NCBI GenBank assembly: GCA_017464345.1
Contig: JAFUAH010000004.1
Coordinates: 1,269 to 65,268, forward strand
Length of the DNA stretch: 64,000 bases
Source: Bacteroidaceae bacterium
GTDB taxonomy: Bacteria; Bacteroidota; Bacteroidia; Bacteroidales; Bacteroidaceae
Direction: 5' to 3'
Shown: in pieces, positions 3,795-55,537 of the stretch
How positions within the stretch are numbered: the stretch's first letter is position 1
How the letters are laid out: the number at the start of each line of letters is the position of its first letter
Translations under genes and position numbers: made by a program
Notes under the pieces: generated by a model
Database searches by the model: none
What the model was told of the DNA's origin: nothing
The model's input: the letters and a program-made list of their open reading frames with translations, nothing else

Positions 3795-3811
3795 CAGAAA
3801 TATTTTCAATT

Positions 3812-11126: not shown

Positions 11127-11283
11127 AGTCTTCAGTATTTATACCTTGTCATCAACAAACCCGCAAAGACCGTGCCAGACGAAAAGTTGGAAACATTTGT
11201 GTCCACTCTGAAGAATCATGTAGGCTGAGCAGGCGATAATTTGGCAGAATTTTGTATCTTTGCGGCAAAATTCAACTGACAAG

Positions 11284-11970: not shown

Positions 11971-12165
11971 TGCACATTATATCACGGCCAACCTCGAAGA
12001 AGTTGCTGGCACCTATCTCTCCCGGCAGGGAATATATCATTGTTTTCTGATAAACCGCTATAATCCACAAATATTTGACCCAAAGAACGCAACATTCCTG
12101 CGAATTATTTGGTTTATAACATAAACTTCTTTATCTTTGCATGGTAATAATTCATCATATACGAT

Positions 12166-13234: not shown

Positions 13235-13279
13235 TATGAAAAGTTTTTAGTACCTTTGTAACGAATAATCAGATAAACC

Positions 13280-14845: not shown

Positions 14846-14890
14846 GGATATTTTCTTTAACCACGAATTACAGGAATCATATTTTCTTTC

Positions 14891-14983
14891 TTAACTACGA
14901 ATTACACGAATTTTACGAATTATTGCCTTCGGCGTTATTTGAGGGCGTAGCCAATTCGTAAAATTCGTGTAATTCGTAGTTAA
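14891..14983. terminator. Perfect 31-bp-arm inverted repeat between convergent genes; loop carries TTGCCTTCGGCGT...GGCGTAGCC
   Basis: Arms 14891-14921 and 14953-14983 are exact reverse complements, read directly. Confidence 0.6.
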
Positions 14984-15002
14984 AAATATTATTAATTAAT
15001 GT

Positions 15003-16184: not shown

Positions 16185-16392
16185 GCTCCAAAGGTACGAA
16201 TAAGCGAGCGATTTCCCAAATATATTTGAGGAAATCCGTAATCGGACGGCCAAAGGCCTACGCTTGCGTAGTTTACGGAGCAAGAACGGCAGTACCTAAG
16301 ACCGAAGGTCAAAGGTACGAATATTTTTTTTATATCCTCACCCTTCTTCTTGAAAACTTTTGTTACCTTTGCCTTATAAATGCTACTAACGA

Positions 16393-18363
16393 GTGAAGAA
16401 ACTCTGTACAATACTGGCTATAGTTCTTTTGTGCTTTCAAGGAACAGCGCAAAATATCTACACGTGGCAAGATTTTGTGAACGAGATATCTGACGACGCG
16501 TATGCCGAGGAGCAGGGCTGGACGGAGCAGATGGAGGAACTGGCCCTGCTGGCGGCGCATCCCATGGACATTAACACGGCCACACAAGAGCAGTTGAGAC
16601 AGTTACCCTTCCTTACAGATAAACAGATAGAGGAGATACACGAATATGTGTTCCTGCACCGAGGTATGCGCTCGATAAGTGAATTAATGGCCATTTCATC
16701 GATAGATTTTCGCACCCGGCGGTTCCTTTCGCTCTTCCTTTATGCCGACCAAGCGGCGTTTGCCCGTCGAGATACACTGACACTGAAAAGCCTGCTGCAC
16801 AATAGCCGACACGAGGCTGCCGTGCGCATGGACATCCCATTATATTATCGCGATGGATATAGTTATCCCCCCCAACAGGGAGGTTACAATGGCAGTGCCC
16901 TGTACAACAACGTACGCTATCGGATGAAGAGTCAGCAGCACTTGGACCTCGGGCTATTGGCTGAGAAGGACCAGGGCGAACCCTTTCGCAAAAACAGCGG
17001 ATGGGACCACTACGGACTGCACGTGATGGTGCGTGACATAGGCATACTGCGCACGGCCATCGTGGGCGACTACAAGATGGGGTTCGGCGAGGGACTGGTG
17101 GTGAACACGGGCTTCACGACGGGAAAATCCAGTCTGATGGGACGTCCCAGCCAGGGCATCCGTGCCCATCAGGGACTGGACGAAGTGAACTTTTTCCGAG
17201 GTGGGGCCGCCACATTCCGAGTGAAGAAAGCGGAGCTAACGGCCTGGGTGTCGCACCGAAAACTGGATGCCACACTGAACAGCGACGGCACCGCACGGAC
17301 GCTACTCACCTCAGGACTGCACCGCACGGACAGCGAACTGGACAAGAAGGGTAACCTGGGCAGTACCCTGGCCGGAGGCAACGTGGCGTGGCAGCATAAG
17401 GGTGTACACCTCGGTGCTACGGGCTATTTTCAGCGGTTTCATCCGAATTTGTCGCCTGGCACAGCCCTCTATCGACGCATCTATCCAATGGGGCGAAACT
17501 TCGGTGTGGTGAGCATGAACTACGGCTACACCCACCTCTGGTTTTCCGTATCGGGCGAGACGGCCTACAGCACTAATCAGGGTGGATGGGCCACGCTGGA
17601 ACGTGCGAGTTGGAAAATCAGTCCCCGATATACCCTGAGCGGGTCGTATCGCTTCTATTCATACAAATACTACTCTTTCTATGCCTCTGCCATCGCGGAA
17701 AACAGCCACGTTCAGAACGAAAGCGGTGCCACGCTACGACTGGATGCCACGCCCGTGGGGCGTTTGTCGACGACCGTCTACGTCGACTTCTTCTATAATC
17801 CCTGGCCGACCTACACGACACCCCGCAGCAGTAGTGGACAGGAACTGACGGCCACGATCCAATATCAGTGGCGACAGCATCATACACTGTCGGTACGCTA
17901 TCAGTTAAAACACAAGGAACAATACGACCTCATGCGCTGGCACAACCGACTGCGACTGCAATACGTCTGGGCCAAAGCATCCTGGAGCCTACGGAGTCTG
18001 CTGAACCTGCACGCCATGGACGGCGACCGGCCGGGCTACGCTCTCTCGCAGCTGGTTCGCTACAAGCATACCACAGGGGACGTAGCCGTCATGGCCAGCT
18101 ACTTCGACACGCCCAACTACGACACTCGGGTCTTCGTCTATGAGCCCACGCTGAGCAACATGTTCCGCTATCCGTCGCTCTACGGAAGGGGAATCAGGTT
18201 GTCCGCCGTGGGCCGTTATTTTGTCTGGCACCGCCGCCTCTGTCTGGAAGTGCTCATCGGCAGCACCCGCTTCACCGACCGCAAAGTCCAAGGGTCGGGA
18301 ATGCAAAAAATCCGTAGTCCCTGGAAGAGTGACATCTCTGCCCAGATAGGACTACGGATATAA
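16393..18363 (+). CDS. Helix-hairpin-helix (ComEA-like) domain protein with large C-terminal beta-rich region
   Basis: GTG start and signal peptide KKLCTILAIVLLCFQGTAQ. The HhH segment is MDINTATQEQLRQLPFLTDKQIEEI...SISELMAISSI. About 500 aa follow with alternating aromatic/polar beta-strand-like patterns. Confidence 0.7.
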   Translation: MKKLCTILAIVLLCFQGTAQNIYTWQDFVNEISDDAYAEEQGWTEQMEELALLAAHPMDINTATQEQLRQLPFLTDKQIEEIHEYVFLHRGMRSISELMAISSIDFRTRRFLSLFLYADQAAFARRDTLTLKSLLHNSRHEAAVRMDIPLYYRDGYSYPPQQGGYNGSALYNNVRYRMKSQQHLDLGLLAEKDQGEPFRKNSGWDHYGLHVMVRDIGILRTAIVGDYKMGFGEGLVVNTGFTTGKSSLMGRPSQGIRAHQGLDEVNFFRGGAATFRVKKAELTAWVSHRKLDATLNSDGTARTLLTSGLHRTDSELDKKGNLGSTLAGGNVAWQHKGVHLGATGYFQRFHPNLSPGTALYRRIYPMGRNFGVVSMNYGYTHLWFSVSGETAYSTNQGGWATLERASWKISPRYTLSGSYRFYSYKYYSFYASAIAENSHVQNESGATLRLDATPVGRLSTTVYVDFFYNPWPTYTTPRSSSGQELTATIQYQWRQHHTLSVRYQLKHKEQYDLMRWHNRLRLQYVWAKASWSLRSLLNLHAMDGDRPGYALSQLVRYKHTTGDVAVMASYFDTPNYDTRVFVYEPTLSNMFRYPSLYGRGIRLSAVGRYFVWHRRLCLEVLIGSTRFTDRKVQGSGMQKIRSPWKSDISAQIGLRI

Positions 18364-18412
18364 GGGAAAAGTAAAACTGTGTATACAATCGTTTTTTTAG
18401 TTTTATCAGAAT

Positions 18413-19078
18413 TTAGCTATTTTCGTTTTTAATAAATCCCTTCACCTTATCCTTCCAGTTCTTCTTATCCTGATTCACGATAATTTGTGCCACCTTGTCG
18501 CCTGCTCGTACGGTAATGAGCCCTGAACGATTCTCGCTACCGTCGTTACTACTGGCTTCAACGGCTATTTTACCATTTGCCGTGTAGACGGTAATCCAAT
18601 CAGGCTGTGAGACTACGGACCACTCCTCAACATTGCAGGTGACCTTTACGTCCTGCTTGAATCCGCTCTTAGGCTTGGCCTTGAAGTCAAGTCTCGACGG
18701 TTCGACAAAAAGCTGTATTTCTACACGTTTTTCCTCCTTCTGCCTTTCTTTTACTTCCTTCTGGGACTGGACAGATACAGCAGTATCAGCCATTTTCTTA
18801 TCGGTAGATACTGGCTGTAATCGCTTGATAGTCTGCTCACATTTCTTTATTTGCTTGTCGCACTTGGCAGTGTTTTCTTCCACATTCTCCTTTGTCTTGG
18901 CATACGCCACTTTGGCTGCCTTGAACTTTAGAATGGCTGCTTGCTGCTTACTCTTTCCGTACTGTTTTTGCAAAGCCAAACCCTCGTTGTACAATTTGTC
19001 TCCCACTGTTTTTTGGCCGAATAACATCATTGGAGAGAGAAACATAAGGATGTAAAGTAATAATCTTAAATTCTTCAT
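18413..19078 (-). CDS. Lipoprotein/secreted protein with C-terminal BACON-like domain
   Basis: Signal peptide present. The C-terminus is ...WSVVSQPDWITVYTANGKIAVEASSNDGSENRSGLITVRAGDKVAQIIVNQ. It lies 14 nt downstream of the kinase gene. Confidence 0.65.
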   Translation of the reverse strand: MKNLRLLLYILMFLSPMMLFGQKTVGDKLYNEGLALQKQYGKSKQQAAILKFKAAKVAYAKTKENVEENTAKCDKQIKKCEQTIKRLQPVSTDKKMADTAVSVQSQKEVKERQKEEKRVEIQLFVEPSRLDFKAKPKSGFKQDVKVTCNVEEWSVVSQPDWITVYTANGKIAVEASSNDGSENRSGLITVRAGDKVAQIIVNQDKKNWKDKVKGFIKNENS

Positions 19079-19092
19079 TTTTGCAATATATT

Positions 19093-20541
19093 TTATTCTG
19101 AAATAATGTCAGCATTTGCTGAAAGATATGTATCTATGTGGCGGGCACGCTCGGCATAGGCCTGTGCCAGTTCAGTTTCGCCCAGCCCAGCAAAATCCTC
19201 AGCTTGTAGGGCCAAGCTCTGTCGGGCAGCATCCAGCTGTGCACCCACGTTTCTAAGGTCCGACTCCACCTTGAGGGCGAGGTCCTGCATGTCCTCTACC
19301 CGAGCTACTTCCAGAGCCTCGGCATAGAGGCGATGGGAGGTTATCAGATAGTTTTCGTAGTTTTCCATATCCTGGTCAGATCCCACGGTCTTGGCCGAAT
19401 CGGCTATGCAGACAAGCGAATCTATCTGATTCTGTATCATCTCATGGTGAATCATGGCCAGTTGTTCAGTTTCCTGACGGCGAACGGCAGACAGGTGATT
19501 GGAGACCGCTACGCAGATGCCGACGATGAGCAGCAGTGCCGCCAGTGTGCCCCCTGCAGCGATGACCAGTGGTTTAGGAATGTGTGGTCTGCCTCCTCCC
19601 TCACGGGTCTGCATTGTCTCCAAGGCGACGCGCATCTGGGCCGAACTCTGGTAACGCTGTTCCTGCCGTTTGGCACAGGCCTTGGCGATGATGTCCCGTA
19701 GGGCTTTGTTCTTGATTACGCCCAGTGGCAGTTTGGCCTTGAGCTGCTTCTCCAGAATTTCATGGCGAGCTCCGTCAAAAGGTGTGTGTCCTACAAGACA
19801 CTGATACAACAGAATGCCCATGGCATAGATATCGGTAGTCTGGTTTTGGTTCTTCACGTCTCCCAGAGCCAGTTCAGGTGCCGCGTACTCGGGTTTCCCC
19901 ATGAAGGCACCAGCCACGGTCAGCCCCTTGTCATTGGTCGTCAGGTTGTTCATCTGCTTGGCAATGCCAAAGTCGATGAGTTTGATGTGGCGGTCTGTCG
20001 TGAGCATGATGTTCGAAGGATCAATGTCACGATGGATGTAGCCTGCATCGTGCAGGGCCATGAGTCCAGAAAGCACGTTCTTCACCACGATGCGTGCAAA
20101 ATATTCAGGATCGTTCCTGTAGTAGCCTAGCATCTCCACAGCGTATGGGACATCCTGTCCGTCCCGGTCTTTCACCTTCCCCTCAAGCACATCGGAGAGC
20201 GAGACACCCGTCAGCAGTTCGCTCACCACGTGGTAGTGTTTGCGTACTTCCCCCGTTACGCTTGTTTCCTCAAGTTCGATGAAGCCCAGCATCTCCACTA
20301 GATTATCGTTACGGAGCTGTATGGCGGCCTCGCGGCGGGCACGCTCTATAGCATGGGCTGGAAGGTCGGCATACATGAACTTGATGGCTACGGGCCTACT
20401 GCTGCCAGTGCGCTCATCTACGCAGATGCCCTTGTATACCTGGCCCATACCTCCGACACCGATGGGCTGGTCATCGGAATTCACTTGATAGTAGACACCT
20501 CGCTGTCTTTCTTCTCTTCCTTGTATCTTTACGTATGGCAT
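19093..20541 (-). CDS. Hanks-type Ser/Thr kinase, bitopic, with about 130-aa extracytoplasmic helical tail
   Basis: Motifs are IGVGGMGQVYKG, VAIKF, HRDIDPSNIML, DFGIAK and GKPEYAAPE. The TM segment is LVIAAGGTLAALLLIVGICVAV. The start overlaps the PP2C stop (TAATG). Confidence 0.85.
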   Translation of the reverse strand: MPYVKIQGREERQRGVYYQVNSDDQPIGVGGMGQVYKGICVDERTGSSRPVAIKFMYADLPAHAIERARREAAIQLRNDNLVEMLGFIELEETSVTGEVRKHYHVVSELLTGVSLSDVLEGKVKDRDGQDVPYAVEMLGYYRNDPEYFARIVVKNVLSGLMALHDAGYIHRDIDPSNIMLTTDRHIKLIDFGIAKQMNNLTTNDKGLTVAGAFMGKPEYAAPELALGDVKNQNQTTDIYAMGILLYQCLVGHTPFDGARHEILEKQLKAKLPLGVIKNKALRDIIAKACAKRQEQRYQSSAQMRVALETMQTREGGGRPHIPKPLVIAAGGTLAALLLIVGICVAVSNHLSAVRRQETEQLAMIHHEMIQNQIDSLVCIADSAKTVGSDQDMENYENYLITSHRLYAEALEVARVEDMQDLALKVESDLRNVGAQLDAARQSLALQAEDFAGLGETELAQAYAERARHIDTYLSANADIISE

Positions 20542-21677
20542 TATTTCGATTTCTTTTTCAGTTTGTCTATTTCCGTTCTCAGCAATACCGATTCTTTCCG
20601 GAGCGAGTCGTTTTGCTCTTGCAGCGAATCCACCTTTCCTTGCAGGCAGACCTCATTCTCCCTAAGCGACTCGTTTTCTGTCAGTTGCTGCTTGTAGGTC
20701 TGATCACTGGAGGCAGTACGTGCCACCAAACTTTGTCGCAGTTCGTCACACTGCCGTGTCAGTTTCTCGACTTGGGCAGAGAGTTGTTGAACCTCTCCTG
20801 ACTTATCGTCTCTGAACAGCAGTGCACCATTACACAGAATGCTTAGCAGGAGTAAGCCTGCCAGTGTAGCGAATATAGTCTTGGTCTTCATATTCCATTT
20901 ATCTTTTAATGTAGAGTCTATCCCCATCTCTATCACAGCCAGTGTGTGATTGTCATAGTGCCCACCAGATGTCGTGCCTATGTTGTCAATTTCTCTTTGC
21001 AAGTTCTCCACCAGGTTGTCCATCGCCACTCCATTGCCTAGGCGTTGGAGCAAGTCGGGATGTGGCATCTCCCCCCATACACCGTCCGTGCACAAGAAGA
21101 AACGATCACCCTTCTGGTAGGGCACGAATGTTATCTCTGCCACATGATTGCTCGTATTGCCTAGTGCCCGCGTGATAACGTTCGACTGTGGGGAAAGGCG
21201 TGCCTGCTCCTCATTCAGAGCCTTGGCCATGACCAATTCGGCCACAAGGGAGTGATCCCGCGTACGAAAGGCTAGTTTGCTCCCATTCATCCGGTAGCAA
21301 CGGCTGTCACCAAGGTGTGCAACGGCTGCGGAATCCTCATTTACAAGTACGGCCACCAACGTGGATCCCATACCACGCAGGTGGGGCTCTTCGTCCATCT
21401 TGCGGTATAGAACATCATTGGCTCGCGACGTTGCCAACTTGATTACATCCTCGCGCGATGCTTGTGGTGAACTTTCGTAGATGGTCTGCATGAATACTTG
21501 TTTGGCCAGGTATGAAGCCATCTTTCCACCAGGACCTCCGCCCATGCCGTCGCAGACAACGAGCAGGAAGCCATGCGGTGTATCAGTCCAGCCCACATCA
21601 TCCTGATTTTCGGGCCGTCCACCAATCAGCGACGATGCATAGCCTGTAATGGGGTATTTTTTGGATTCTATCTGCAT
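20541..21677 (-). CDS. PP2C-family Ser/Thr phosphatase, bitopic, C-terminal coiled coil
   Basis: Motifs are GGRPENQDD, VCDGMGGGPGG and LCTDGVWG. The TM segment is IFATLAGLLLLSILCNGALLF, followed by a heptad-rich tail. Confidence 0.85.
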   Translation of the reverse strand: MQIESKKYPITGYASSLIGGRPENQDDVGWTDTPHGFLLVVCDGMGGGPGGKMASYLAKQVFMQTIYESSPQASREDVIKLATSRANDVLYRKMDEEPHLRGMGSTLVAVLVNEDSAAVAHLGDSRCYRMNGSKLAFRTRDHSLVAELVMAKALNEEQARLSPQSNVITRALGNTSNHVAEITFVPYQKGDRFFLCTDGVWGEMPHPDLLQRLGNGVAMDNLVENLQREIDNIGTTSGGHYDNHTLAVIEMGIDSTLKDKWNMKTKTIFATLAGLLLLSILCNGALLFRDDKSGEVQQLSAQVEKLTRQCDELRQSLVARTASSDQTYKQQLTENESLRENEVCLQGKVDSLQEQNDSLRKESVLLRTEIDKLKKKSK

Positions 21678-21691
21678 GTATCAACTTTTTC

Positions 21692-22318
21692 TCATAAGTT
21701 GGCAAAGATAACCATGACGGAAAAGACAATAATTGCAATGGAGAGGAAAAAGAAAGCCATCCCCCAACCATCCCACGTATCCTGTGCTTCGTTAAATGCC
21801 TCCGCATTCTGCCATCTGCGGTTCTCCCATGCCAGTCTCCGTCCTTGTACGCCGAAAATGATGCTGGGGATGAGTGTCCAGCCCACTGCTATATTGACAA
21901 GAAAGGCCCACCAGCAACCATTAAAAAAGCCCCACAGAGGATAGAACATGAAAGCTCCCCAGCTCCACTCGTCAATCTCGGGCTGAACTTCGGGCATGGG
22001 AGGGGTGATGGGCTGGACTACTACGGGTGGGGTGAAGACAGGTTCGGGTCGACGTGGCGGAAAAAATTGGTCTATCTGGTTCCATGTGACGGGATATTGC
22101 CCCGCCACCATGATAGTGTCACCGTGGTGGATGGGCACGGCTCTGTTCTTCACATTGATGTTATTTATCAACGTGCCGTTAGTACTGGTGTCACGATACA
22201 TCAGCTGGCTACCGTCGTAGTAGAGCGTGGCATGGTACTTGCTGGCATATTGGCAATGGTCATCCAGATAGATATCGCTGTTCTTCGAGCGACCGATGGT
22301 TACCTCTCTTATTGTCAT
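21692..22318 (-). CDS. FHA-domain protein with Pro-rich linker and Trp-rich two-helix membrane module (DUF2628-like)
   Basis: The FHA part is IGRSKNSDIYLDD...HATLYYDGSQLMYRDTSTNGTLIN. The C-terminus is WSWGAFMFYPLWGFFNGCWWAF. Confidence 0.8.
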   Translation of the reverse strand: MTIREVTIGRSKNSDIYLDDHCQYASKYHATLYYDGSQLMYRDTSTNGTLINNINVKNRAVPIHHGDTIMVAGQYPVTWNQIDQFFPPRRPEPVFTPPVVVQPITPPMPEVQPEIDEWSWGAFMFYPLWGFFNGCWWAFLVNIAVGWTLIPSIIFGVQGRRLAWENRRWQNAEAFNEAQDTWDGWGMAFFFLSIAIIVFSVMVIFANL

Positions 22319-22330
22319 GTTTGCTCTCTC

Positions 22331-23707
22331 CTATTGTGATATGTTAAGAATGATTGCACGCTTGTTTTTGGTATCGTACAGGGCAAATGTACCCGCACCG
22401 CCGACCATGTATTCTGCCTTCGTGGTGCCATTTATGCTTGTCTCCACATTGTAGGCACGGACTACTGAGTTTGCCAGGTCCTTGTAGGTAAAACCGTAGG
22501 TCTTTACTTTTTTCTTCTCGGACAGCAGTTTTACTTTCACTAGCTGATAAGCCTCTGCATTATTGCCCACCCCCGCCAAGTGGTATTCCACGCTGACTTT
22601 GGTGCTGCCTGTGCCTGTCGGGGATATACTGAGAGGGATGCTGAGACTGTCCAGCGCCAGTTGCTCATCCACCTCCTTTACTCCGACGAAGGTGGCTGGC
22701 TGGCGGTTCACCATCGCCTCGCCTTCTGCCAGTATGACATCGAAAAGAGGGTTGAACTTGGGATTCTTCTCACGTCTCAGGCTGACGAATTCAGACATGC
22801 TTACCTTGCGCATGTCGCCAGAAACAGTTCTGACCAGAAGGTAGTTCTCCGAGTCCTTCTGGCTCATATAGCTCTGTTCCAAGACTATGCCACGTACTTC
22901 ATCGTTGTATGTAGTATGTACTATATCCAGCAGTTCGCTCTGCTCGAAAATGTCTTGTGAGGCATTCACGGGATGGTATGTGTACTTGACAATGTCGTTT
23001 ACCTTGAATGTCTCTGTCAGCCCTCCCCTTACATACAGGCTTTGGGTGTACTTGGTTTCGTCAGCAGGCTGTCCATCCACGCTTTCCCCTGACTGTAGAC
23101 GGTAGGTACAGTCAATGCCGGAAAGGGCGTTCTTAGCTCGACGATTGGTCTTGATGACGGCCACGTCATCCCAGGAGAGGATGTATGTATTTGGGGAGAG
23201 TTCCAAGTATTTCACCTTGATACCCTTCTCCAAGACTTTCACCTTGGGAATGTTGCGCTTCTGCTGAAGATAATAGGAGAAGCGATGGACTTTGGCAGGC
23301 TTCGCATCATCAGCACTCTTATCAACGTATGTGGAGTCGTCGCCCTCATTGTCTGACCATTCGGCAACAGAGTCGACTTCTGCCTGAAAGCCTGTGAATG
23401 TAATGCTATTAAGCGTCAGTGTCTTTTTGCTACCAACTCTGTCATAAGCATCATTCTCACTGGCCCATTTTGCCCAAGCCTCATCCAGACTGTTCTCATC
23501 ATATACATGGAAACCGATATCAACCTTTGCACCGTCTATCATAATGGTAGCATTTTCGGAACAGAATATCAACCGGCCATCCCCTGACTGCTGGACATAA
23601 CCATTTAGGAGAGAACCATTCTTAAGGTACAGGTGCTGAACGACCTGCGCCTTAGCCACCATAGCCATTGCCAAGGCAGAAATGAGGATGAAAATATTCT
23701 TTTTCAT
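22331..23707 (-). CDS. Secreted protein of unknown function
   Basis: Signal peptide MKKNIFILISALAMAMVAKAQ. I recognise no motif. It is embedded in the operon with 9-12 nt gaps. Confidence 0.7.
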   Translation of the reverse strand: MKKNIFILISALAMAMVAKAQVVQHLYLKNGSLLNGYVQQSGDGRLIFCSENATIMIDGAKVDIGFHVYDENSLDEAWAKWASENDAYDRVGSKKTLTLNSITFTGFQAEVDSVAEWSDNEGDDSTYVDKSADDAKPAKVHRFSYYLQQKRNIPKVKVLEKGIKVKYLELSPNTYILSWDDVAVIKTNRRAKNALSGIDCTYRLQSGESVDGQPADETKYTQSLYVRGGLTETFKVNDIVKYTYHPVNASQDIFEQSELLDIVHTTYNDEVRGIVLEQSYMSQKDSENYLLVRTVSGDMRKVSMSEFVSLRREKNPKFNPLFDVILAEGEAMVNRQPATFVGVKEVDEQLALDSLSIPLSISPTGTGSTKVSVEYHLAGVGNNAEAYQLVKVKLLSEKKKVKTYGFTYKDLANSVVRAYNVETSINGTTKAEYMVGGAGTFALYDTKNKRAIILNISQ

Positions 23708-23716
23708 GGATTTATT

Positions 23717-25291
23717 CTATTTTCTGTGTGGATTACTTAACAATTCTTGGATATATTTTGCCTGTACACCGTAGTTGTAGCCTTGTGTTTCAGGATTCCC
23801 CGAGTTGAGCACACCTATCAGCATACCCTGTTCATTGAATATGGGTGAACCGCTGGCACCATGTGTAGAGATGGCATTGAATCCAAAGGTATACTCTGAG
23901 GCTGCCTGTGTGATGTTACCACCATTGCTGACAGCCTGGATGCCCTTTTCGTTGTCACGCTTCTGAATGATTTCCCAAGTATCGTCCATACCCAAGGGGA
24001 ATCCCATCGTGACCAGATGATTACCTACTTTCAAGGCCTCTTCGCTGATGTCCATGGAATCTTTGACATTGACGTAAGTGCACTTTGATGTGGGAAGTCG
24101 CATCGAAACGGTCTGAACCAGGGCTACATCCTTCTCTTTCTCATCGCCTGCAGACAGGACACGACACTTAATCATATTGTCCGGGTCAAAAATCTCACCT
24201 TGGGGAACTAACGCTATATAGTCCAGTTCACCATCTACCTTTACCTGAGATATGTAGGCCGAGAGACTGGTGGCGTTGCCTCTAAAGTATGTACGCTTCA
24301 CATCTATTGTGGCAATACTCTGGGCTAAACTCTTGGATATGAGATTTTGCAACACTTCTCTTGCGTTGGTGTACAACCATGGCTTGACCACATGCAGGTT
24401 GGTTATGGCCATTCCGTCCTCTGAAATAAAGAATCCAGTACCGGAATATGCTCCGGAATTCATAGTTATCTCATTTATCCAGTTTACAAGGTCTTTGGAA
24501 GATAGGCTACTTACGTCCAGCAATTTGTCACCCGCAAGTAATACCTTGGTAGGAATTTCGAACAAAGCCATTTGCTCAGGTGTCATGTCTCCCACCGTGA
24601 CATTGTAGTGATAGACACCTATCATCATGACTAAAGAACGATTGTAGCGTGCGAAAAGTTCACCGTCATCATATTTTTTATCATGAGTACCTATCAATGT
24701 CTTCACGCCCAGTCCAAGCCCGGCAACTACTATCAGACTGGCAGCTATCTTGAGAAGCGTGGAGAGGGTATCGGCAGGCCATGATATCTGATTCCTTAGG
24801 TTTACGGGCACTCCGCCACAGACGACTGCGCTCGATTTTTTTATGCGGAAGGGGGTGTTTGATGGAATTTTCTTTCCGTCCACGGTTGTGCCGTTCTTGC
24901 TATGGTCCACAATGTAGACTTTGTTGTCACGCCCAACCTTTATGGTAGCATGGTACCGACTCACGGTAGCACCGGATATCTGTATGTCGTTCTGAAAGTT
25001 GGAACCTACACCGTAAATGGCCTTATAGGCTGAATTATCCTCGGACATGGGCACCTGGCTCCATTGCAGTTCTACATCAGCAAAGCGTATGGCATCGCCC
25101 CGACGAACATTTACGGGCTTTCCCGGCTGTATGGGCTGGTTCATGATGAACGTTCCGTTGCGGCTGTTCTTATCTTCAATCTGCATGTCCCCGTTATCCA
25201 GCATCACCAGTTCGGCATGTAGCGAACTTACCCTGTCACTATGCAGCACAATATCACAGGTCTGTGCCCGGCCTATCTTCAGCAGTCTCAT
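23717..25291 (-). CDS. Tandem-FHA / TM / trypsin-like serine protease fusion
   Basis: There are two FHA units (IGRAQTCDIVL...SLHAEL...SRNGTFI and ...SRYHATI...SKNGTTVDG). The TM segment is LLKIAASLIVVAGLGLGV. The protease triad context is ITNLHVV, DVALVQ and GASGSPIF. Confidence 0.85.
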   Translation of the reverse strand: MRLLKIGRAQTCDIVLHSDRVSSLHAELVMLDNGDMQIEDKNSRNGTFIMNQPIQPGKPVNVRRGDAIRFADVELQWSQVPMSEDNSAYKAIYGVGSNFQNDIQISGATVSRYHATIKVGRDNKVYIVDHSKNGTTVDGKKIPSNTPFRIKKSSAVVCGGVPVNLRNQISWPADTLSTLLKIAASLIVVAGLGLGVKTLIGTHDKKYDDGELFARYNRSLVMMIGVYHYNVTVGDMTPEQMALFEIPTKVLLAGDKLLDVSSLSSKDLVNWINEITMNSGAYSGTGFFISEDGMAITNLHVVKPWLYTNAREVLQNLISKSLAQSIATIDVKRTYFRGNATSLSAYISQVKVDGELDYIALVPQGEIFDPDNMIKCRVLSAGDEKEKDVALVQTVSMRLPTSKCTYVNVKDSMDISEEALKVGNHLVTMGFPLGMDDTWEIIQKRDNEKGIQAVSNGGNITQAASEYTFGFNAISTHGASGSPIFNEQGMLIGVLNSGNPETQGYNYGVQAKYIQELLSNPHRK

Positions 25292-25333
25292 AGTAGTCTT
25301 TCTTTTTTATATTGATTACGTGTGTCATTAATT

Positions 25334-25942
25334 TCACCTATCGGCTCGCTTTACGTTTTTGCCCTCTTCATTTATTTTCTTTTCAGGCTCTTTTTTCTTT
25401 TTATCCTTGCTATCCGTCGGCTTGTTCTCCTTCTTATTGGTTGTCTGGGCAGGTCTCAGTTTGGCCAACGAGTCCTTTACAGCTTTCTCAATGGAGTCCT
25501 TTCTTTGCTTCTCCTGCTTTTGCAGTTCTTCGGCCTTGCGTAACCGTTCCAGACTGTCAAGTGCCATTTCTGCCGGAGTGGGAACTGGAGCCTCTTCCTT
25601 GCTCATCCGCTTAATACCAAATACTGCCCCGGCGACAATGACCAGCACTCCAAGGGCTATGATTGCCCAGCGCAGGTAGCCAGCCCCTCCTCTGGGTATC
25701 AGATTCCAGTCGAGCCGGGCCACGTGGGCAAAGGATATATTGTCTTTGCGTGTCACTGGTACGGGCACGTTAGGTGAAATGCGGATGCCATTGACATAGG
25801 TACCGTTGGTGCTCTGGTCCACAATGGTCATCTTTCCAAAACTCTCTACGCTCAGCGTGGCATGGCGGCGACTTATGATATCCGTACGGTCGTTGATGAC
25901 AATGTCACAGCCTTGTTCTCTCCCGATAGAATAAACTTTCAT
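25334..25942 (-). CDS. FHA-domain bitopic protein with Lys/Glu-rich tail
   Basis: The FHA part is IGREQGCDIVIND...RRHATL...STNGTYVNG. The TM segment is WAIIALGVLVIVAGAVFGI, followed by a charged low-complexity tail. Confidence 0.8.
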   Translation of the reverse strand: MKVYSIGREQGCDIVINDRTDIISRRHATLSVESFGKMTIVDQSTNGTYVNGIRISPNVPVPVTRKDNISFAHVARLDWNLIPRGGAGYLRWAIIALGVLVIVAGAVFGIKRMSKEEAPVPTPAEMALDSLERLRKAEELQKQEKQRKDSIEKAVKDSLAKLRPAQTTNKKENKPTDSKDKKKKEPEKKINEEGKNVKRADR

Positions 25943-25948
25943 GTGTAT

Positions 25949-26989
25949 TTACTTTTTAGTGGTTCCTTGTATTAAATCACCTATAGCCTTGAGCTGGCCG
26001 CTCACTTTCTCGAGCGAATCGTTCAGGTGCCTGACACTATCCTGCAGCACTGATTCACGGTGTTGCAGACTGTCCATTTCTACCAGAAAATCCTCGGGGG
26101 TCTTCTTCGAGCGATATTGATACATGTTGGCTGCGATACTGAATGTGCAAAGCAGCAGTAAAGTGAGTAATAGATATTTCGTAAATTGTGTCATCTTAGG
26201 TTGTAGTTTAGAGTTTTTCTTTGTTTCCACAATGGCTAATGTAAGGTTGTCGTGACCGCCTCCGTTTTCGCGCCCGTTATTGTCGATGGTGGTGGCTATG
26301 TCGTCTACCACGGCTCCCAAGGCAGTCTTATGATTTGCCACCATTCTCACTAACTCGGGCTCGGGCATAGTGCCATGAACGCCGTCCGTCGAGAGCAAGA
26401 AGCGGTCTCCCCTCTGATACGGAAGTTCTGCAATATCCACTTCCACGTCTGGTTTCATGCCGAGTGCACGGGTGATGACATTGGACTGGGCCGAAAGACG
26501 GGCCTGTTCTTCTGTGATGACACCCTGGCGCACAAGGTCGAAGACCATGGAGTGGTCGGAAGTGCGAAAGACCTTCCGGTGTCCCCTCACCTGATACACA
26601 CGGGTGTCTCCTACATGGGCCACATAGGCAGCACGGTCTGTAAGCAAAAGCACCGTGGCCGTAGTGCCCATTCCGCGCAATGACGGCTGTTCGTTCCCTG
26701 CGGTGATGATGGCCATGTTGGCGCGGCGTATGGCTTTGATAAGTATATTTTTGCTCTCCTCCTGAATGCCTGCCTCACTGATACTTGCAATAATTTCATG
26801 TACAGCGATGGATGAGGCTGTCTTCCCGCCAGGCCCTCCGCCCATACCGTCACAGACGGTCACAACAAACCCAAACTCTGTATGCTGTGCTCCGAAAGTG
26901 TCCTGATTGTCTTTCCGACCGCCTATCCGAGATTCGCCAAAGGCTGTGAACTGGTCTTCGTCATTGCGGTGTAAGGTGATTAATTCCAT
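25949..26989 (-). CDS. PP2C-family Ser/Thr phosphatase, bitopic (paralog of 20541-21677)
   Basis: Motifs are GGRKDNQDT, VCDGMGGGPGG and LSTDGVHG. The TM segment is YLLLTLLLLCTFSIAANMY, followed by a short helical tail. Confidence 0.85.
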   Translation of the reverse strand: MELITLHRNDEDQFTAFGESRIGGRKDNQDTFGAQHTEFGFVVTVCDGMGGGPGGKTASSIAVHEIIASISEAGIQEESKNILIKAIRRANMAIITAGNEQPSLRGMGTTATVLLLTDRAAYVAHVGDTRVYQVRGHRKVFRTSDHSMVFDLVRQGVITEEQARLSAQSNVITRALGMKPDVEVDIAELPYQRGDRFLLSTDGVHGTMPEPELVRMVANHKTALGAVVDDIATTIDNNGRENGGGHDNLTLAIVETKKNSKLQPKMTQFTKYLLLTLLLLCTFSIAANMYQYRSKKTPEDFLVEMDSLQHRESVLQDSVRHLNDSLEKVSGQLKAIGDLIQGTTKK

Positions 26990-27028
26990 GATAATCGTCT
27001 CCTTTTTCTTTATTTTATCTCGAACTTC

Positions 27029-27958
27029 TTATCCTGTCCAGAACTTCCACCAGGGTGCAGGTTCGGGTAGCAGAGCGTTTTTTATTGCCTCTTTGAAGTC
27101 TCTGGCCGTCTGGTATCGGCGTATCTGTTCTTTTTCCGTAGCCCTGCGGATGACAGAGAGTAGGCGACTGGGGATGCGGTCGGGACAGGGGGGAAGGGGT
27201 TCTTTCATCTGCCGGGTCAGTGTCTCCGCCTCTGTCTTGCAGGCCATGGGATTCTTGCCTGCCAGAAGTTCGTAGAATGTGATGCCCAGTTCGTAGATGT
27301 CGGTGGTTGCATTTATCTGTACGGAAGCTCCGTTCTGTTCACGCAGTATCTGCTCTGGGGCGGAATATTCCGGCGTACCGATAAATCCGAAGGAGGAAAA
27401 CTTGTTACCACCGTTCATGCGTGCTATGCCCAGATCCATGAGGCGCACATTACTGTCCTGTTCGACCATGATGTTTGAGGGTTTTATGTCACGGTGGATG
27501 ACCCCCCGGGAATGTACATAGTCCAGTGCGTCAAGCACGGACACAATGGCATGGCAGATTTTCTCAATACGTGTCGGCGAACTATCGAATTTTCGCACAT
27601 ACTTGTCGATGTCCTCTCCCTGTACGAAGTTGCTTAGTATGAATATGGGGCCATATTCGGGAGCATACTCACAATAGCCTATCATCTCCACCAGGTTAGG
27701 GTGGCGGAAAGCCAGGGATGCCTCTTGCTGGGCACGTTCTCGTATCATCTTGTTGTTGGCATAGAAATCCTTGACACGCTTGACCGCTATCCTGCTGCCC
27801 GTACGACACCGGTAGCCGATATAGACATCGCCCATGGCACCGCTACCGACAGGTTTGTCCATCGGATTATAGCAGTACCATTCGCCCATAACCTGCAGAT
27901 AGAGGTAGGGGTCGCCACGTCGCTGACGTACGGTCTGGGATTGGTATGCAGGACTCAT
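27029..27958 (-). CDS. Hanks-type Ser/Thr kinase, soluble
   Basis: Motifs are VGSGAMGDVYIG, IAVKRV, HRDIKPSNIMV, DLGIARM and GTPEYSAPE. Confidence 0.85.
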   Translation of the reverse strand: MSPAYQSQTVRQRRGDPYLYLQVMGEWYCYNPMDKPVGSGAMGDVYIGYRCRTGSRIAVKRVKDFYANNKMIRERAQQEASLAFRHPNLVEMIGYCEYAPEYGPIFILSNFVQGEDIDKYVRKFDSSPTRIEKICHAIVSVLDALDYVHSRGVIHRDIKPSNIMVEQDSNVRLMDLGIARMNGGNKFSSFGFIGTPEYSAPEQILREQNGASVQINATTDIYELGITFYELLAGKNPMACKTEAETLTRQMKEPLPPCPDRIPSRLLSVIRRATEKEQIRRYQTARDFKEAIKNALLPEPAPWWKFWTG

Positions 27959-27974
27959 GCTTGCTCCTTCTTCC

Positions 27975-28751
27975 CTACATACCTACGGTGCCCCCGTGCT
28001 GATTTCCAGAAGAACCATCAAACCCTACAGTACCTCCTTCGGGTTGGAAGTTTCCACCCCATGGGCCTGATGCCGCAGGATCGAAGGGCTGGAAACCACT
28101 GCGTGTACGGTTGTCGCCAAAGGGGTTGAAGTCGTCCACTGGCTCTTCTTCTTCCTGCTGCTGCAAAGGAACGAAGTTTTCAGCCACTTTCAGCCCCATG
28201 GTGACAGGGTCAAGCAGGATCAGGTAGAGTTCGTAGTTGTCGCCCACGGTGATGATGTCACCGTTCTTGCATTGTACTGCTTCCAAGAAGAGACTCTCAC
28301 CGTTGAGCAGCGTACCGTTGGTAGACTGCCCGTCGGCAATGGATGCCAAAACGCGCTCGGGATTCTTCATTTTGCGCACCACAAGCACGGCATGTTCGCC
28401 CGATACGGTTCCCTCTGGAAGCACTATGTCACACTGCGTGGATTTTCCGATGACGTTCTTACCCACATGCAGTGGCCAGAACTCTCCGGCCATGGTGCGA
28501 GACACACTATACAGGAATCCCACCACGGGTTTGCCAGAGAGCACGGTATTGTTAGCAGGCTGGTGAGGATTGCTTCTGTCTGGCTGAACGTTTACGGATG
28601 GCCGCTGTCCACCCATCATGCCAGGCACCACGGTCCCACGGCCTCCACCCTGTGCCTGGGCATCTGTGCTGCGCGTATAGAAACTCGGAGAACCACCAGG
28701 GCGGGCGCCATCCATCGGTTCAAGACCCTGAATCACTGTTTTGTTTGCCAT
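27975..28751 (-). CDS. FHA-domain protein with Gly/Pro-rich disordered flanks
   Basis: The central FHA is VGKNVIGKSTQCDIVL...SGEHAVL...STNGTLLNG. It is the first gene of the operon. Confidence 0.8.
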   Translation of the reverse strand: MANKTVIQGLEPMDGARPGGSPSFYTRSTDAQAQGGGRGTVVPGMMGGQRPSVNVQPDRSNPHQPANNTVLSGKPVVGFLYSVSRTMAGEFWPLHVGKNVIGKSTQCDIVLPEGTVSGEHAVLVVRKMKNPERVLASIADGQSTNGTLLNGESLFLEAVQCKNGDIITVGDNYELYLILLDPVTMGLKVAENFVPLQQQEEEEPVDDFNPFGDNRTRSGFQPFDPAASGPWGGNFQPEGGTVGFDGSSGNQHGGTVGM

Positions 28752-29306
28752 ATTGTTTTGTATTATGTGTTGAATGACTATTCATTAAGTTTCCATCTTC
28801 AGCGCATATACAAAAAAGCGTGGGAACCACTGCTTGTTGCCCGTCCCACTCTTAGAGGCTTCTCGCATTGCCCGATATTGTGAACGAGCAACGCCGAAGC
28901 CCACGCCGATATGCAATCCTCACTACCATGTCTGTGTGGTATGGCAGGAGTGTATCTGCACATCCCGAGGACATCTACCGTTGCTTCATCCTTGACAATA
29001 TCTGAGAATTTTGCGAGAATTCCTAAGAGCCAAAGACAAAGCGTCATGAGTAAACGCCTTTCATATATGTCATGTTCCTCTGCCCCATCCTTGTGTGATA
29101 TGCCCGCCACTCTTGGCTCGGCGTGAGCTTGCACCTGCAGGGACGCAGGATACACCTGAGGAACAGCGCAAAGTTACGAATAATATCTCTATATAAAAAA
29201 GAAAAAACAAAAAAACTTTTGTATATTGTATAAGTGAGTATAAAGGAAAAAACGTTGGCAGAATTAATAAATGGATAAAAAAGACTACGGTGCCTGACCA
29301 AAATCC

Positions 29307-29370
29307 AGGTTTGGAATGCACGTTCCAAACCTATGAACGCACGTACCAAACCTTGGAACGTGCGTTCATA
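29307..29370. terminator. Two adjacent perfect hairpins sharing the word CGTGC(A/G)TTCCAA
   Basis: The first is AGGTTTGGAA-tgcacg-TTCCAAACCT (29307-29332). The second is TATGAACGCACG-15 nt-CGTGCGTTCATA (29332-29370). Both lie about 90 nt downstream of the stop of 29462-30565 (minus). Confidence 0.5.
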
Positions 29371-29461
29371 ACCTTGGGAACTTCTATGCAGTGTAGTACT
29401 TTTCCTATCCCGCGATACCTTTATTCATAATATATAAGGGAAAAGAACATGTATGTTGTTG

Positions 29462-30565
29462 CTACTGCTGCAACTGAGGTATCATGAAGTAGACGGGTTG
29501 TCCATTAAACTCAATGTTGTCCGACCCGTTCCAGAGATTGAAGCTGGAACCGATAATCTTCGCAACATAGAGTTTGGTGTCCAGATGATAGAATTGCGTG
29601 TTGTCTTCACTGAAGGAATAGGTGAGTTTAAAACCGAAGTCGATAGTGGACTCACCGGGCTGCAGTTCGCGCACCTCGCCCTTGCGCAGCATATTAGACT
29701 TGCTGTCCGTCCAGTAGAACTGATACCACTGCTTCGTCGTGGCACCGATGCCAAAGAGTCCGCCACCCTGTACAGAGGAGAGCTGCTTCAGTTCGATATT
29801 GCCACCAAAGGGATTCTTGCCGTCTGTAGGGAAGAACTCCTGCTTGCCCAAGTCCAGTGTACTGTTGGCAGGAATGGCCACCACGCTCTGTGAGAATCCT
29901 GTGGCCGAGGCAGCCTGTCCGGCTTGTGTGGTCTGCGAAGCGGAAGACTGGGTGAAGGGAGTGCTGATGCCGTGGCGCAGGAAGAAAGTGTTGCCCAGAT
30001 AGACGTAGATGGTCTTGTCGGTCTTGTTCTTCACGTTCACGCCGATACCCGACGTGCGCGGTGCCATACGGGCATAAGTTGCACTTTTATAGATACTATA
30101 GGTAATCTCCACATTCTTGTCGGCCATCTTGGAGTCAGGCGACATGTGCAACAGGCCCACAATCTCCTTGGCTGCGCTGCTCGACACTTTCTTGGAAGAG
30201 TAGACGTTGGTCATATTAAAGTTGGCTATGCACTTTTCGTTGGCTTCCGGGTCACTGGCATCCAGCATCACGGGTTCTGGCTTTGTAGCAGGTGTAGCGG
30301 CCTTGGCTTCCGGCTGGGGCTCCACGCCGATGCGCACCTTCGTGCCGTCGGCCTTCTTCCACAGCAACACTTTGGCTTTCTCGATACTCTTCATCGGAGC
30401 ATCATCCTCGGCTCCGGTCTTGTAGTAAATCTTCTGTGCACCACTGGCATCCACGTCCCATGCCTGGATGCTCTCTCCGTCCTCCGTCATCAGTATGTCC
30501 TGTGCATGGCCTGCGACGGGCAAGAGCAGGAGCAAGAGCAGGAAAAAGAAATTCTTTTTGTTCAT
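29462..30565 (-). CDS. Secreted protein of unknown function
   Basis: Signal peptide MNKKNFFFLLLLLLLPVAGHAQ. No recognisable motif. Confidence 0.7.
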   Translation of the reverse strand: MNKKNFFFLLLLLLLPVAGHAQDILMTEDGESIQAWDVDASGAQKIYYKTGAEDDAPMKSIEKAKVLLWKKADGTKVRIGVEPQPEAKAATPATKPEPVMLDASDPEANEKCIANFNMTNVYSSKKVSSSAAKEIVGLLHMSPDSKMADKNVEITYSIYKSATYARMAPRTSGIGVNVKNKTDKTIYVYLGNTFFLRHGISTPFTQSSASQTTQAGQAASATGFSQSVVAIPANSTLDLGKQEFFPTDGKNPFGGNIELKQLSSVQGGGLFGIGATTKQWYQFYWTDSKSNMLRKGEVRELQPGESTIDFGFKLTYSFSEDNTQFYHLDTKLYVAKIIGSSFNLWNGSDNIEFNGQPVYFMIPQLQQ

Positions 30566-54646: not shown

Positions 54647-54647
54647 A

Positions 54648-55514: not shown

Positions 55515-55537
55515 TTACATTAAAAAAACTGTTGTTT

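Follow-up and report, generated by a model that had tools for sequence, protein, structure and literature searches.

Why would a Bacteroidaceae bacterium pack FHA proteins, Hanks-type Ser/Thr kinases, PP2C phosphatases and a serine protease into a single run of ten genes, most of whose products cross the membrane? The question is raised by a 64,000-nucleotide stretch of contig JAFUAH010000004.1 (assembly GCA_017464345.1, positions 1,269 to 65,268 of the forward strand; hereafter the window), in which ten minus-strand open reading frames (ORFs), g1 to g10, lie at the coordinates first proposed for them from the sequence (Table 1). From g1 to g10 the successive gaps are 16, 39, 6, 42, 9, 12, 14, -1 and 14 nt, which bears out the original prediction of a packed set with gaps of at most 42 nt and one start/stop overlap. 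The domain tally given there was likewise recovered with Pfam: five FHA domains (one each in g1, g4 and g7, two in g5), two Hanks kinases (Pkinase, g2 and g9), two phosphatases (PP2C_2, g3 and g8), one trypsin-like protease (Trypsin_2, g5) and one BACON domain (g10). We propose, at a probability of roughly 0.4, that the operon may encode a membrane-embedded phosphothreonine signalling complex that controls a periplasmic protease by FHA-dependent clustering. Full-text literature, with most subscription journals outside the coverage so that an earlier description is possible, turned up no account of either the cluster or a leader RNA found ahead of it, in agreement with the original statement that no characterised equivalent is known from Bacteroidota; in papers of the Aravind laboratory on conflict systems, FHA and PP2C domains appear in other contexts only.

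The gene arrangement is real and not a product of chance, as 46 species-level loci, and additional metagenome contigs, show the same order. The 46 loci were obtained by scanning one genome per GTDB species and were supplemented with two further contigs, and the ORFs in them were labelled by best match to the ten window proteins. They span Prevotella, Xylanibacter caecicola, Bacteroides ilei, B. rodentium, Phocaeicola massiliensis, P. faecalis, Paraprevotella, Prevotellamassilia, Duncaniella and other Muribaculaceae, among others; two are recorded as Lachnospiraceae and Pseudoflavonifractor, labels that look unlikely for a Bacteroidales cluster. A Parabacteroides sp. contig and one of a widely sampled species carry the same core. 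Every locus that is long enough keeps the order g2-g3-g4-g5...g6, with g1 ahead wherever a g1 ORF was called, and about half of the loci carry an extra membrane kinase gene between g1 and g2. The invariant core consists of the FHA protein, the soluble kinase (preceded, where present, by the membrane kinase), the membrane-anchored PP2C, the FHA protein with one transmembrane segment, the FHA-FHA-transmembrane protease and the 458-residue protein. The remaining genes, g7, g8, g9 and g10, are confined to a Prevotella-like subset (19, 27, 26 and 21 distinct sequences, respectively). The expectation that all ten genes travel together is therefore right for the g1-g6 core but not for g7-g10, which form a lineage-specific extension. 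Neighbouring genes overlap at their stop and start codons in many loci, and this suggests translational coupling. The cluster is best explained as a conserved, chromosomally inherited operon of gut and rumen Bacteroidales.

In accordance with the predicted bitopic architecture of most of the products, a hydrophobicity scan finds a single transmembrane segment in each of g3, g4, g5, g8 and g9, two in g7 and none in g1 or g2, while the N-terminus of g6 is signal-like. FHA, kinase and PP2C domains are cytoplasmic in function, so g3, g4, g5, g8 and g9 would each expose a C-terminal part to the periplasm. In g3, g4, g8 and g9 these tails are charged, helix-prone and weakly conserved. Pfam and NCBIfam detect neither a DNA-binding domain nor a cytoplasmic enzyme other than the kinases and phosphatases in the cluster, and the protease is therefore the only evident effector. 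Regulated periplasmic proteolysis, the output proposed at the outset, is plausible for such a system.

The protease g5 has two cytoplasmic FHA domains, a transmembrane helix at residues ~175-204 and a periplasmic serine protease domain with the HtrA fold. Trypsin_2 matches this domain at 47.5 bits (Pfam cut-off 27.6), and the triad H299, D388 and S481 is conserved in at least 95% of 45 sequences. The AlphaFold2 (AF2) model of the periplasmic domain has predicted local distance difference test (pLDDT) values mostly above 90, with helical insertions at residues 265-276 and 310-349. Its best 50 Foldseek matches in the PDB are all HtrA-type (DegP, DegQ, HtrA1, HtrA3, Deg1, AlgW and MucD), with E values of 3.4e-11 to 1.9e-9, and TM-scores to the HtrA1 catalytic domain are 0.72-0.75. 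Pfam finds no PDZ domain and the polypeptide stops at the end of the protease domain; the NCBIfam models degP_htrA_DO and HhoA_HhoB_HtrA score 27.5 and 33.2 bits against cut-offs of 416 and 450, respectively. As modelled, the domain has the fold and triad of the HtrA/DegP/DegS group (MEROPS S1C), and lacks its PDZ domain and its equivalog-level scores.

HtrA proteases are trimers or higher oligomers, and PDZ domains are their usual switch. Two members anchored in the inner membrane, DegS and AlgW, set off the proteolytic cascades of envelope stress. With these two, of which AlgW is among its structural matches, g5 has in common an N-terminal membrane anchor and, behind it, a periplasmic protease domain of HtrA fold with the His-Asp-Ser triad; it differs in its two cytoplasmic FHA domains, its helical insertions and the absence of the PDZ domain that is their allosteric switch, and the cluster has no anti-sigma or sigma factor gene. 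The arrangement of a cytoplasmic FHA domain, one transmembrane segment and a periplasmic domain in g4 and g5 is also that of scaffold proteins of envelope machines, namely SctD/YscD of the type III secretion system and Myxococcus GltG, and there are sub-threshold matches to the Yop-YscD_cpl and GltG models (Pfam, NCBIfam). By contrast with those systems, the cluster has no secretion or motility genes, and the periplasmic parts are a protease or a charged tail of low complexity instead of ring-building domains. We favour control by FHA-dependent clustering because g5 combines the anchor and fold of an HtrA protease with two cytoplasmic FHA domains and no PDZ domain.

Table 1. Genes of the operon and elements of its leader region, in window coordinates.
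Feature	Position	Strand	Description
-7 box	29169..29176	-	Candidate Bacteroidetes-type promoter -7 box TAACTTTG; pattern TAnnTTTG; A/T-rich tract ahead; ~105 nt upstream of the leader RNA
Leader RNA	28801..29065	-	Predicted structured leader RNA, ~265 nt; covariance model 194 bits; nhmmer and covariance-model hits ahead of g1 in 8 other species loci
g1	27975..28751	-	Soluble FHA protein, 258 residues; FHA residues 100-170, E 1.7e-12; no transmembrane segment
g2	27029..27958	-	Soluble canonical Hanks Ser/Thr kinase, 309 residues; Pkinase E 1.8e-41; no transmembrane segment
g3	25949..26989	-	Bitopic PP2C phosphatase, 346 residues; PP2C_2 E 4.9e-18; transmembrane segment 269-290
g4	25334..25942	-	FHA-transmembrane protein, 202 residues; FHA E 6.2e-17; transmembrane segment 92-110
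g5	23717..25291	-	FHA-FHA-transmembrane-protease, 524 residues; two FHA, E 3.5e-34; Trypsin_2 E 3.9e-12
g6	22331..23707	-	Predicted periplasmic all-beta protein, 458 residues; predicted cleavable signal peptide
g7	21692..22318	-	FHA, Pro-rich linker and Trp-rich module with two transmembrane segments, 208 residues; FHA E 2.2e-14; accessory, in 19 loci
g8	20541..21677	-	Bitopic PP2C with coiled-coil tail, 378 residues; PP2C_2 E 3.2e-15; transmembrane segment 268-286
g9	19093..20541	-	Bitopic Hanks-type kinase, 482 residues; Pkinase E 7.1e-36; transmembrane segment 326-344
g10	18413..19078	-	Secreted BACON-domain protein, 221 residues; BACON (PF13004) E 7.2e-9, 35.9 bits (cut-off 25); accessory, in 21 loci

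The two kinases differ in kind. g2 is the best-conserved gene of the cluster (49-82% identity across loci) and has the full set of canonical Hanks motifs (AVK, HRDIKPSN, DLG and GTPEYSAPE), which its orthologues conserve. For g9, described at first as a Ser/Thr kinase with a transmembrane segment and a helical ectodomain, the kinase domain (Pkinase, 124 bits) and the membrane segment are present and VAIK, the alphaC Glu and DFG are retained, but two motifs depart from the canonical HRDxKxxN and GTxxYxAPE: g9 reads HRDIDPSN at residues 170-177 and GKPEYAAPE at residues 216-224. Its extracytoplasmic tail of 138 residues is poorly conserved; Pfam finds no vWA domain in g9 and no PASTA domain in the cluster. 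The two departures go together in the membrane kinases of the system, 47 of about 50 combining HRD-[ILV]-D-P-[ST]-N with GKPEYAAPE, such that replacement of the catalytic-loop Lys by Asp is coupled to replacement of the P+1-loop Thr by Lys. This swap is possibly a relocation of the active-site lysine; the membrane kinases could equally be pseudokinases that activate g2.

Within the activation loop of g9, an invariant threonine, T208, lies in an LTVxG motif that recurs in similar form in g1. The disordered Gly/Pro-rich tails of g1 contain four conserved T-[VI] motifs, at T5, T40, T241 and T255, and the corresponding sequences (KTVIxG, [RK]GTVVxGM, GGTVG[FLM]DG and a C-terminal GGT[VI]GM) are kept in ~30 of 34 orthologues. 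Because of their resemblance to the kinase-loop motif they are good candidate phospho-acceptor and FHA-docking sites, and g1 is a candidate multi-site phospho-scaffold. On the binding side, the five FHA domains score 48-117 bits against the PF00498 cut-off of 20.7, and the signature GR...SxxH...NG is intact in g4, in the first FHA domain of g5 and in g7; in g1 the Arg position is occupied by Lys. The extracytoplasmic tail of g4 (92 residues) is Lys/Glu-rich, with 28 K+R and 19 D+E, and of low conservation. In g7, whose transmembrane segments span residues 139-157 and 187-205, the DUF2628 domain suspected earlier was not found: a scan of the C-terminal 102 residues at E<=1 returned DUF4337 as the sole match (E 0.19).

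Both phosphatases (PP2C_2 at 65.9 bits for g3 and 56.7 bits for g8, cut-off 24) keep the metal-site motifs DGMGG, GD[ST]R, TDG and DN; in g3, DGMGG and further metal-site motifs are invariant. In g3 the cytoplasmic PP2C domain and the transmembrane segment are followed by an extracytoplasmic helical tail of ~56 residues. The tail of g8 gives bZIP-like coiled-coil matches in Pfam, and its stop codon overlaps the g9 start by 1 nt. Compared with most orthologues (mostly 482-513 residues), g8 lacks a C-terminal helical region of ~110 residues; this may be a natural short variant and not a truncation, because a 383-residue form exists in another locus (L036). g3 and g8 are paralogues with 45% identity. 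When the kinase domains are placed in a neighbour-joining tree, the g2 kinases, which are soluble, group in one clade and all membrane kinases in another, in which the downstream copies, including g9 of the window, nest within the upstream copies. Taken together, the identity of the phosphatases and the nesting of g9 indicate that g8-g9 is a lineage-specific duplicate of the ancestral PP2C / membrane-kinase pair, and that the lineage of the window later lost the upstream membrane kinase. The notion of two paralogous modules, put forward for the cluster at the outset, is correct in this limited sense, but not beyond it.

From these components we envisage the following course of events. The bitopic Hanks kinase, with its variable extracytoplasmic tail, would sense the state of the envelope or cell surface and, with g2, would phosphorylate threonines in T-V-x-x-G motifs, that is, in its own activation loop and at the four positions in the g1 tails. 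The FHA domains of g4, g5 and g7 would dock on these phosphothreonines and cluster the bitopic proteins that carry them, and this cytoplasmic clustering would set the oligomerisation, and hence the activity, of the periplasmic protease domain of g5. The protease may act with or on g6, and possibly also on the coiled-coil tails of its partners, and the bitopic phosphatases g3 and g8 would reset the system.

In complete loci g6, the presumptive partner, invariably comes after the protease gene, with nothing between them or with an inserted block of WG-repeat, outer-membrane barrel and lipoprotein genes. The family has no match in Pfam, NCBIfam or PADLOC and none in a profile search of PDB sequences; 219 homologues were detected, and 1.84e9 representative proteins contain 521 clusters of the family at 50% identity. 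The AF2 model is all-beta with a pLDDT of 87. Internal repeats were considered and discarded, as hhalign between segments of g6 gave a best probability of 23%.

The inserted block belongs to three further families that became apparent when unlabelled neighbours were clustered and representatives scanned against Pfam. In ~30 of the 46 loci they accompany the cluster in fixed order: a WG_beta_rep protein of ~500 residues with a signal peptide, an OMP_b-brl_2 barrel (PF13568) of ~230 residues and a lipoprotein of ~350-500 residues with an SSCSNDD-type lipobox, which we presume may mark surface export. The block stands between g5 and g6 in Muribaculaceae, Phocaeicola and B. rodentium and after g9 or g10 in Prevotella-like loci, frequently with stop/start overlaps with the neighbouring cluster genes (loci L001, L004, L009, L011, L013, L018, L020, L023-L027, L029-L038, L040-L046, L048, L170 and L171). 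In most relatives, then, the WG-repeat protein, the small barrel and the lipoprotein might aid sensing by the kinase. A secreted protease gene often comes after the block: a Peptidase_S41 lipoprotein in 8 loci, a Peptidase_M6 in 6, a Peptidase_C10 with an I69 pro-inhibitor in 4 and a trypsin with a type IX secretion system (T9SS) sorting tail in 1. All accessory gene products are extracytoplasmic. By tblastn, the WG-repeat, barrel, lipoprotein and secreted-protease families are absent from the whole window, where the cluster ends at g10, as it does in about ten other loci. Homology of g6 or g10 to accessory families F0-F3 was also considered and dropped, the alignments being confined to signal peptides. 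The original prediction of a BACON lipoprotein for g10 was right as to the BACON domain; the lipoprotein part fails, since the signal peptide has no lipobox, the first Cys is residue 73 and orthologues have an AxA/Q site of signal-peptidase-I type followed by a conserved mature N-terminus, GDKLFxEGQxLQ, so that g10 would be secreted through signal peptidase I.

In four Muribaculaceae loci (L032-L034, at about 11270-15000, and L039) the cluster is followed by an SH3_3-containing protein, a Cys/Ser/Gly-rich peptide with a twin-arginine translocation signal and two proteins with Cys-rich motifs that by eye are radical-SAM/SPASM-like. These genes look like a RiPP-like cassette (ribosomally synthesized and post-translationally modified peptide) and are probably a separate unit.

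The system might instead be an outside-in sensor, in which the protease, g6 and the accessories are the input, for instance by processing or sensing a cue at the envelope or surface that activates the membrane kinase, and g1 is the output, working in the manner of GarA or OdhI as a protein whose tail phosphothreonine binds its own FHA domain and so releases or captures cytoplasmic targets encoded elsewhere. The layout of g1, an FHA domain with disordered tails carrying conserved Thr motifs, is GarA-like, and g1 is the sole soluble non-enzyme component. The extracytoplasmic parts evolve fastest, as sensors do, g6 having 26-50% identity across loci and the kinase tail being essentially unconserved, as against the 49-82% of g2. 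TagR and TagQ, periplasmic and outer-membrane proteins of the Pseudomonas type VI secretion system (T6SS) threonine-phosphorylation pathway, act upstream of the kinase PpkA, and by analogy g6 and the accessories might do the same. However, none of the loci encodes a cytoplasmic target, g1 falls far below the OdhI and FhaB equivalog cut-offs of NCBIfam, and the three other FHA proteins are fixed in the membrane, as would be expected of a scaffold more than of a diffusible switch. We regard this direction of signalling as possible, though rather unlikely.

The secreted proteases themselves raise the prospect that the operon regulates or matures secreted and surface proteases or surface proteins; the signalling module would adjust how proteases bound for the cell surface are secreted or processed, or how active they are, with g5 as the processing protease. 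This is suggested by the 19 of 46 loci that end in a secreted protease gene, of four catalytic classes (S41, M6, C10 with I69, and the T9SS-tailed trypsin), and by the PF13568 identity of the accessory barrel. The window and at least nine related loci, however, have no such protease gene adjoining the cluster, and the classes vary by locus, leaving no single conserved substrate relationship; we consider this function unlikely.

The genes that flank the cluster vary with lineage. In the window the flanks encode an HhH protein, a phosphodiesterase, a radical SAM enzyme, TrkH and an FAD-dependent oxidoreductase (FAD_binding_2 / Succ_DH_flav_C matches), and elsewhere ribosomal protein S15 / BipA, CysS, DUF1232 / CARDB or glycoside hydrolases. 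No Pfam family occurs more than four times in the 105 flanking proteins taken from 33 loci, and the 25 most frequent families include none of the T6SS or the divisome; nor do T6SS or divisome genes adjoin the cluster in the window or in five related loci annotated with Pfam. The absence of these contexts, claimed for the window alone, extends to the relatives. Two further minus-strand ORFs near the cluster, at 29462-30565 (367 residues) and 15003-16283 (426 residues, TTG start, in a 60% GC stretch), match no Pfam family, and relatives do not keep them beside the cluster.

Known FHA, kinase and phosphatase systems resemble the cluster in parts. The P. aeruginosa T6SS threonine-phosphorylation pathway (Fha1/TagH, PpkA, PppA and TagQRST) shares a bitopic Hanks kinase, a PP2C and an FHA scaffold; it controls the assembly of an envelope machine and has periplasmic and outer-membrane accessory proteins upstream of its kinase. 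The cluster differs in having no T6SS genes nearby, no vWA ectodomain and five FHA domains, mostly membrane-anchored, instead of one, and the TagH model TIGR03354 (cut-off 120.25 bits) scores only 44.6, 53.7 and 40.9 bits for g4, g5 and g7. With the actinobacterial fhaA-fhaB-pstP-rodA-pbpA-pknA-pknB operon of Mycobacterium, Corynebacterium and Streptomyces it shares small FHA proteins anchored in the membrane and one FHA protein that contains a long disordered stretch, together with a bitopic PP2C and two Hanks kinases, at least one of them bitopic. That operon, from a different phylum, includes genes for SEDS and penicillin-binding proteins (PBPs) and a PASTA sensor, all missing here, while the Bacteroidales cluster adds the FHA-FHA-tethered HtrA-fold protease, g6 and, in relatives, the WG-repeat, outer-membrane barrel and lipoprotein genes.

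The likeness prompts the question whether the cluster is a Bacteroidales counterpart of the FhaA/FhaB/PstP/PknA/PknB module, acting on peptidoglycan, division or envelope growth through targets encoded elsewhere. The parts correspond well: an FhaA-like disordered FHA protein, FhaB/FipA-like FHA-transmembrane proteins, a PstP-like bitopic PP2C and a bitopic kinase with a second kinase, and FhaB/FipA is the best NCBIfam match of the FHA proteins, though below cut-off (NF049868, 30.8-58.9 bits against 125). Against it, none of the loci examined contains or adjoins a division gene such as SEDS or PBP, a PASTA domain is missing, and the equivalog scores are all far below their cut-offs: the Stp1/IreP model NF033484 gives 195.6 bits for g3 and 177.2 bits for g8 (cut-off 230), and the PknB_PASTA model 177 and 153 bits (cut-off 450) through the kinase domain only. 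As far as these models tell, the actinobacterial likeness is confined to architectures, and a cell-wall role is improbable. The cluster belongs to the Hanks-kinase / PP2C / FHA kind of operon, and for the g6 family, the FHA-tethered PDZ-less HtrA protease and the D/K-swapped kinase we found no described counterpart.

A defence function, in which kinase signalling would trigger a protease effector against phage or competing bacteria, deserves consideration on account of PADLOC-DB 2.0. There the kinases score against PD-T4-6 and mad6 (E down to 6e-58) and the PP2Cs against PDC-M21C, with a weak hit of the protease to RT-protease models; the accessory gene content varies between loci, and the window contains restriction-modification islands at distances of 8 kb and 23 kb from the cluster. 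The kinase, phosphatase and protease matches are nevertheless generic to the catalytic domains, g1, g6, g7 and g10 have none, and no listed system has such a composition. Unlike abortive-infection effectors, all components outside the signalling set are extracytoplasmic. Several families share the gene order, with identities dropping as taxonomic distance grows; g6 has no relative in 2.9 million viral contigs, and housekeeping genes flank the cluster directly. An anti-phage or inter-bacterial conflict system is accordingly very improbable.

A low-GC region (40-42%) at 804-10157 contains a VapE-like / BT4734-like primase-helicase gene, two genes for Eco57I/MmeI-type N6-methyltransferases (846 and 781 residues) and a PLD-family (NgoFVII-like) nuclease gene, and is probably a mobile restriction-modification island. 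At 51599-60481, where GC is 42-47%, lies a Type I restriction-modification locus (HsdR of 1015 residues, HsdM of 697 residues) with an inserted Schlafen/AlbA_2-HATPase_c_4-wHTH gene of 498 residues.

How the operon is expressed is suggested by the 710 nt that separate g1 from the upstream gene, which hold the -7 box and, downstream of it, a non-coding stretch whose DNA sequence is conserved in distant loci (Table 1). From its sequence, we infer that the box is the operon promoter. The stretch is predicted to form a structured leader RNA with a minimum free energy of -105.1 kcal/mol (z = -5.8), and it closes with a GUGGGA...UCCCAC hairpin and U-run (28849-28812), 55-60 nt ahead of the g1 ATG. 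A nine-copy alignment supports a consensus structure of 44 pairs, 20 of them with compensatory changes. We examined and rejected the possibility of a small ORF (a 118-residue GTG ORF): tblastx conservation occurs in several frames, on both strands and with stops, and as it is not frame-specific the stretch is therefore non-coding. Scanning of window positions 17500-30000 on both strands against Rfam 15 gave no match at E<=1. In the window and 47 loci (L001 and L003-L049) the covariance model places the leader only upstream of g1, namely in the window and in eight other loci (L001, L004, L009, L010, L023, L024, L027 and L047). Just downstream of the 367-residue ORF, the minus strand at 29300-29400 has nested inverted repeats (ATGAACGCACG...CGTGCGTTCAT and TTCCAAGGTTTGG...CCAAACCTGG), one arm pair of which scores as a terminator-like hairpin of 11 pairs at 29333-29306; these are probably the terminator of the upstream gene.

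The leader extends well beyond the operon. A pattern scan of metagenome contigs found at least 120 stretches, of which the 80 loci examined (L050-L129) all carry full-length leader matches of 67-217 bits. The counts that follow refer to the matches listed. In 81 copies, aligned by fitting to the model so that the paired fraction is somewhat inflated, 94.7% of pair cells are standard, against 35-54% with slid partners; two helices, of 7 and 6 pairs, have compensatory changes at every pair, and helices 3 and 5 display all four Watson-Crick pair types. A TAnnTTTG box lies within 260 nt upstream in 69 of 70 copies (16% of random windows), ~83 nt ahead of the leader, and the first ORF is on the same strand in 58 of 64, a median of 71 nt downstream. 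The genes behind these copies include BspA-type leucine-rich repeat (LRR) proteins (15), NusG/UpxY-like proteins (4), LytTR regulators (2), dockerin proteins (2) and a C10 protease (1). A g1-type gene adjoins none of the 74 listed copies that have sufficient DNA downstream, and 70 of the 74 have no cluster-related gene at all downstream, so the idea of a leader exclusive to the operon was abandoned. An invertible promoter or a miniature inverted-repeat transposable element was likewise set aside in view of the orientation shared with the downstream gene (58 of 64 of the listed matches), the fixed distance, the position of the promoter box outside the element and the covariation of helices 3 and 5.

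Across copies the leader spans ~230-310 nt, with the hairpin and U-run 50-90 nt before the first gene. The two LytTR regulators head a different FHA / PP2C / kinase cluster, and the remaining genes behind the leader are mostly surface-associated by domain (e.g. DUF285, Big_2 and outer-membrane barrel). Presence of the leader before BspA-type LRR, C10 protease, dockerin and NusG/UpxY-like capsule-locus genes also speaks for the surface-protease function weighed above. Like known terminator-containing 5' leaders (riboswitches and the EAR and LoaP/UpxY-dependent elements), it is promoter-proximal and structured, covaries strongly and ends in a hairpin with a U-run, and it stands ahead of long operons, surface-protein genes and capsule-type loci that start with NusG paralogues. 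It differs in its unusually large size and in belonging to no Rfam 15 family, and looks like a new RNA family. It could be a modular promoter-proximal element with a terminator, acting as a riboswitch, an attenuator or a processive-antitermination element, and on this reading the operon may sit in a regulon of surface and envelope genes. In the scheme proposed here, the terminator-like hairpin and U-run would gate transcription into the operon.

Several observations weigh against FHA-dependent control of g5. With Asp in place of the catalytic-loop Lys, the membrane kinases may be weak or atypical enzymes or pseudokinases. The second FHA domain of g5 has Ser where the phosphate-binding Arg normally sits, and both FHA domains of the protein are modelled at low confidence by AF2. 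Foldseek returns nothing for g6 from the PDB at E<=1e-3, that is, no recognisable fold relative. The window has no WG-repeat, outer-membrane barrel or lipoprotein gene, so that these products could take their assigned part in sensing here only if other regions of the genome encoded them. The leader was detected in 9 of the ~34 loci that include the region upstream of g1. We infer, moreover, all the interactions as well as the direction of signalling, which could be the reverse, from the periplasm in and through g1 out. A more ambitious reading combines an unrecognised trans-envelope machine, in which cytoplasmic phosphothreonine/FHA clustering replaces the PDZ switch of HtrA proteases and so controls proteolysis beyond the inner membrane, and which has a new class of Hanks kinase, its active-site lysine relocated, and a new fold in g6, with a surface-gene regulon under a new terminator-containing leader; we think this doubtful.

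To our knowledge, Ser/Thr phospho-signalling has hardly been studied in Bacteroidota, a phylum that dominates gut and rumen communities. The operon provides a defined system of 8 to about 13 genes, distributed from Prevotella to Phocaeicola, Parabacteroides and Muribaculaceae, with cultured carriers in Phocaeicola massiliensis DSM 17679, Phocaeicola faecalis, Bacteroides ilei, Bacteroides rodentium and Xylanibacter caecicola. Its candidate phospho-sites are now concrete, and it has a plausible effector in an HtrA protease that lacks PDZ and is linked through the membrane to FHA domains. If it is true that FHA docking switches g5, this would be a new way of transferring information across the inner membrane, and the HtrA family would gain a new regulatory logic. 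The leader RNA, found ahead of BspA-type proteins, capsule-type loci and two kinds of FHA/kinase cluster, may mark a surface-remodelling regulon in Prevotella-like bacteria.

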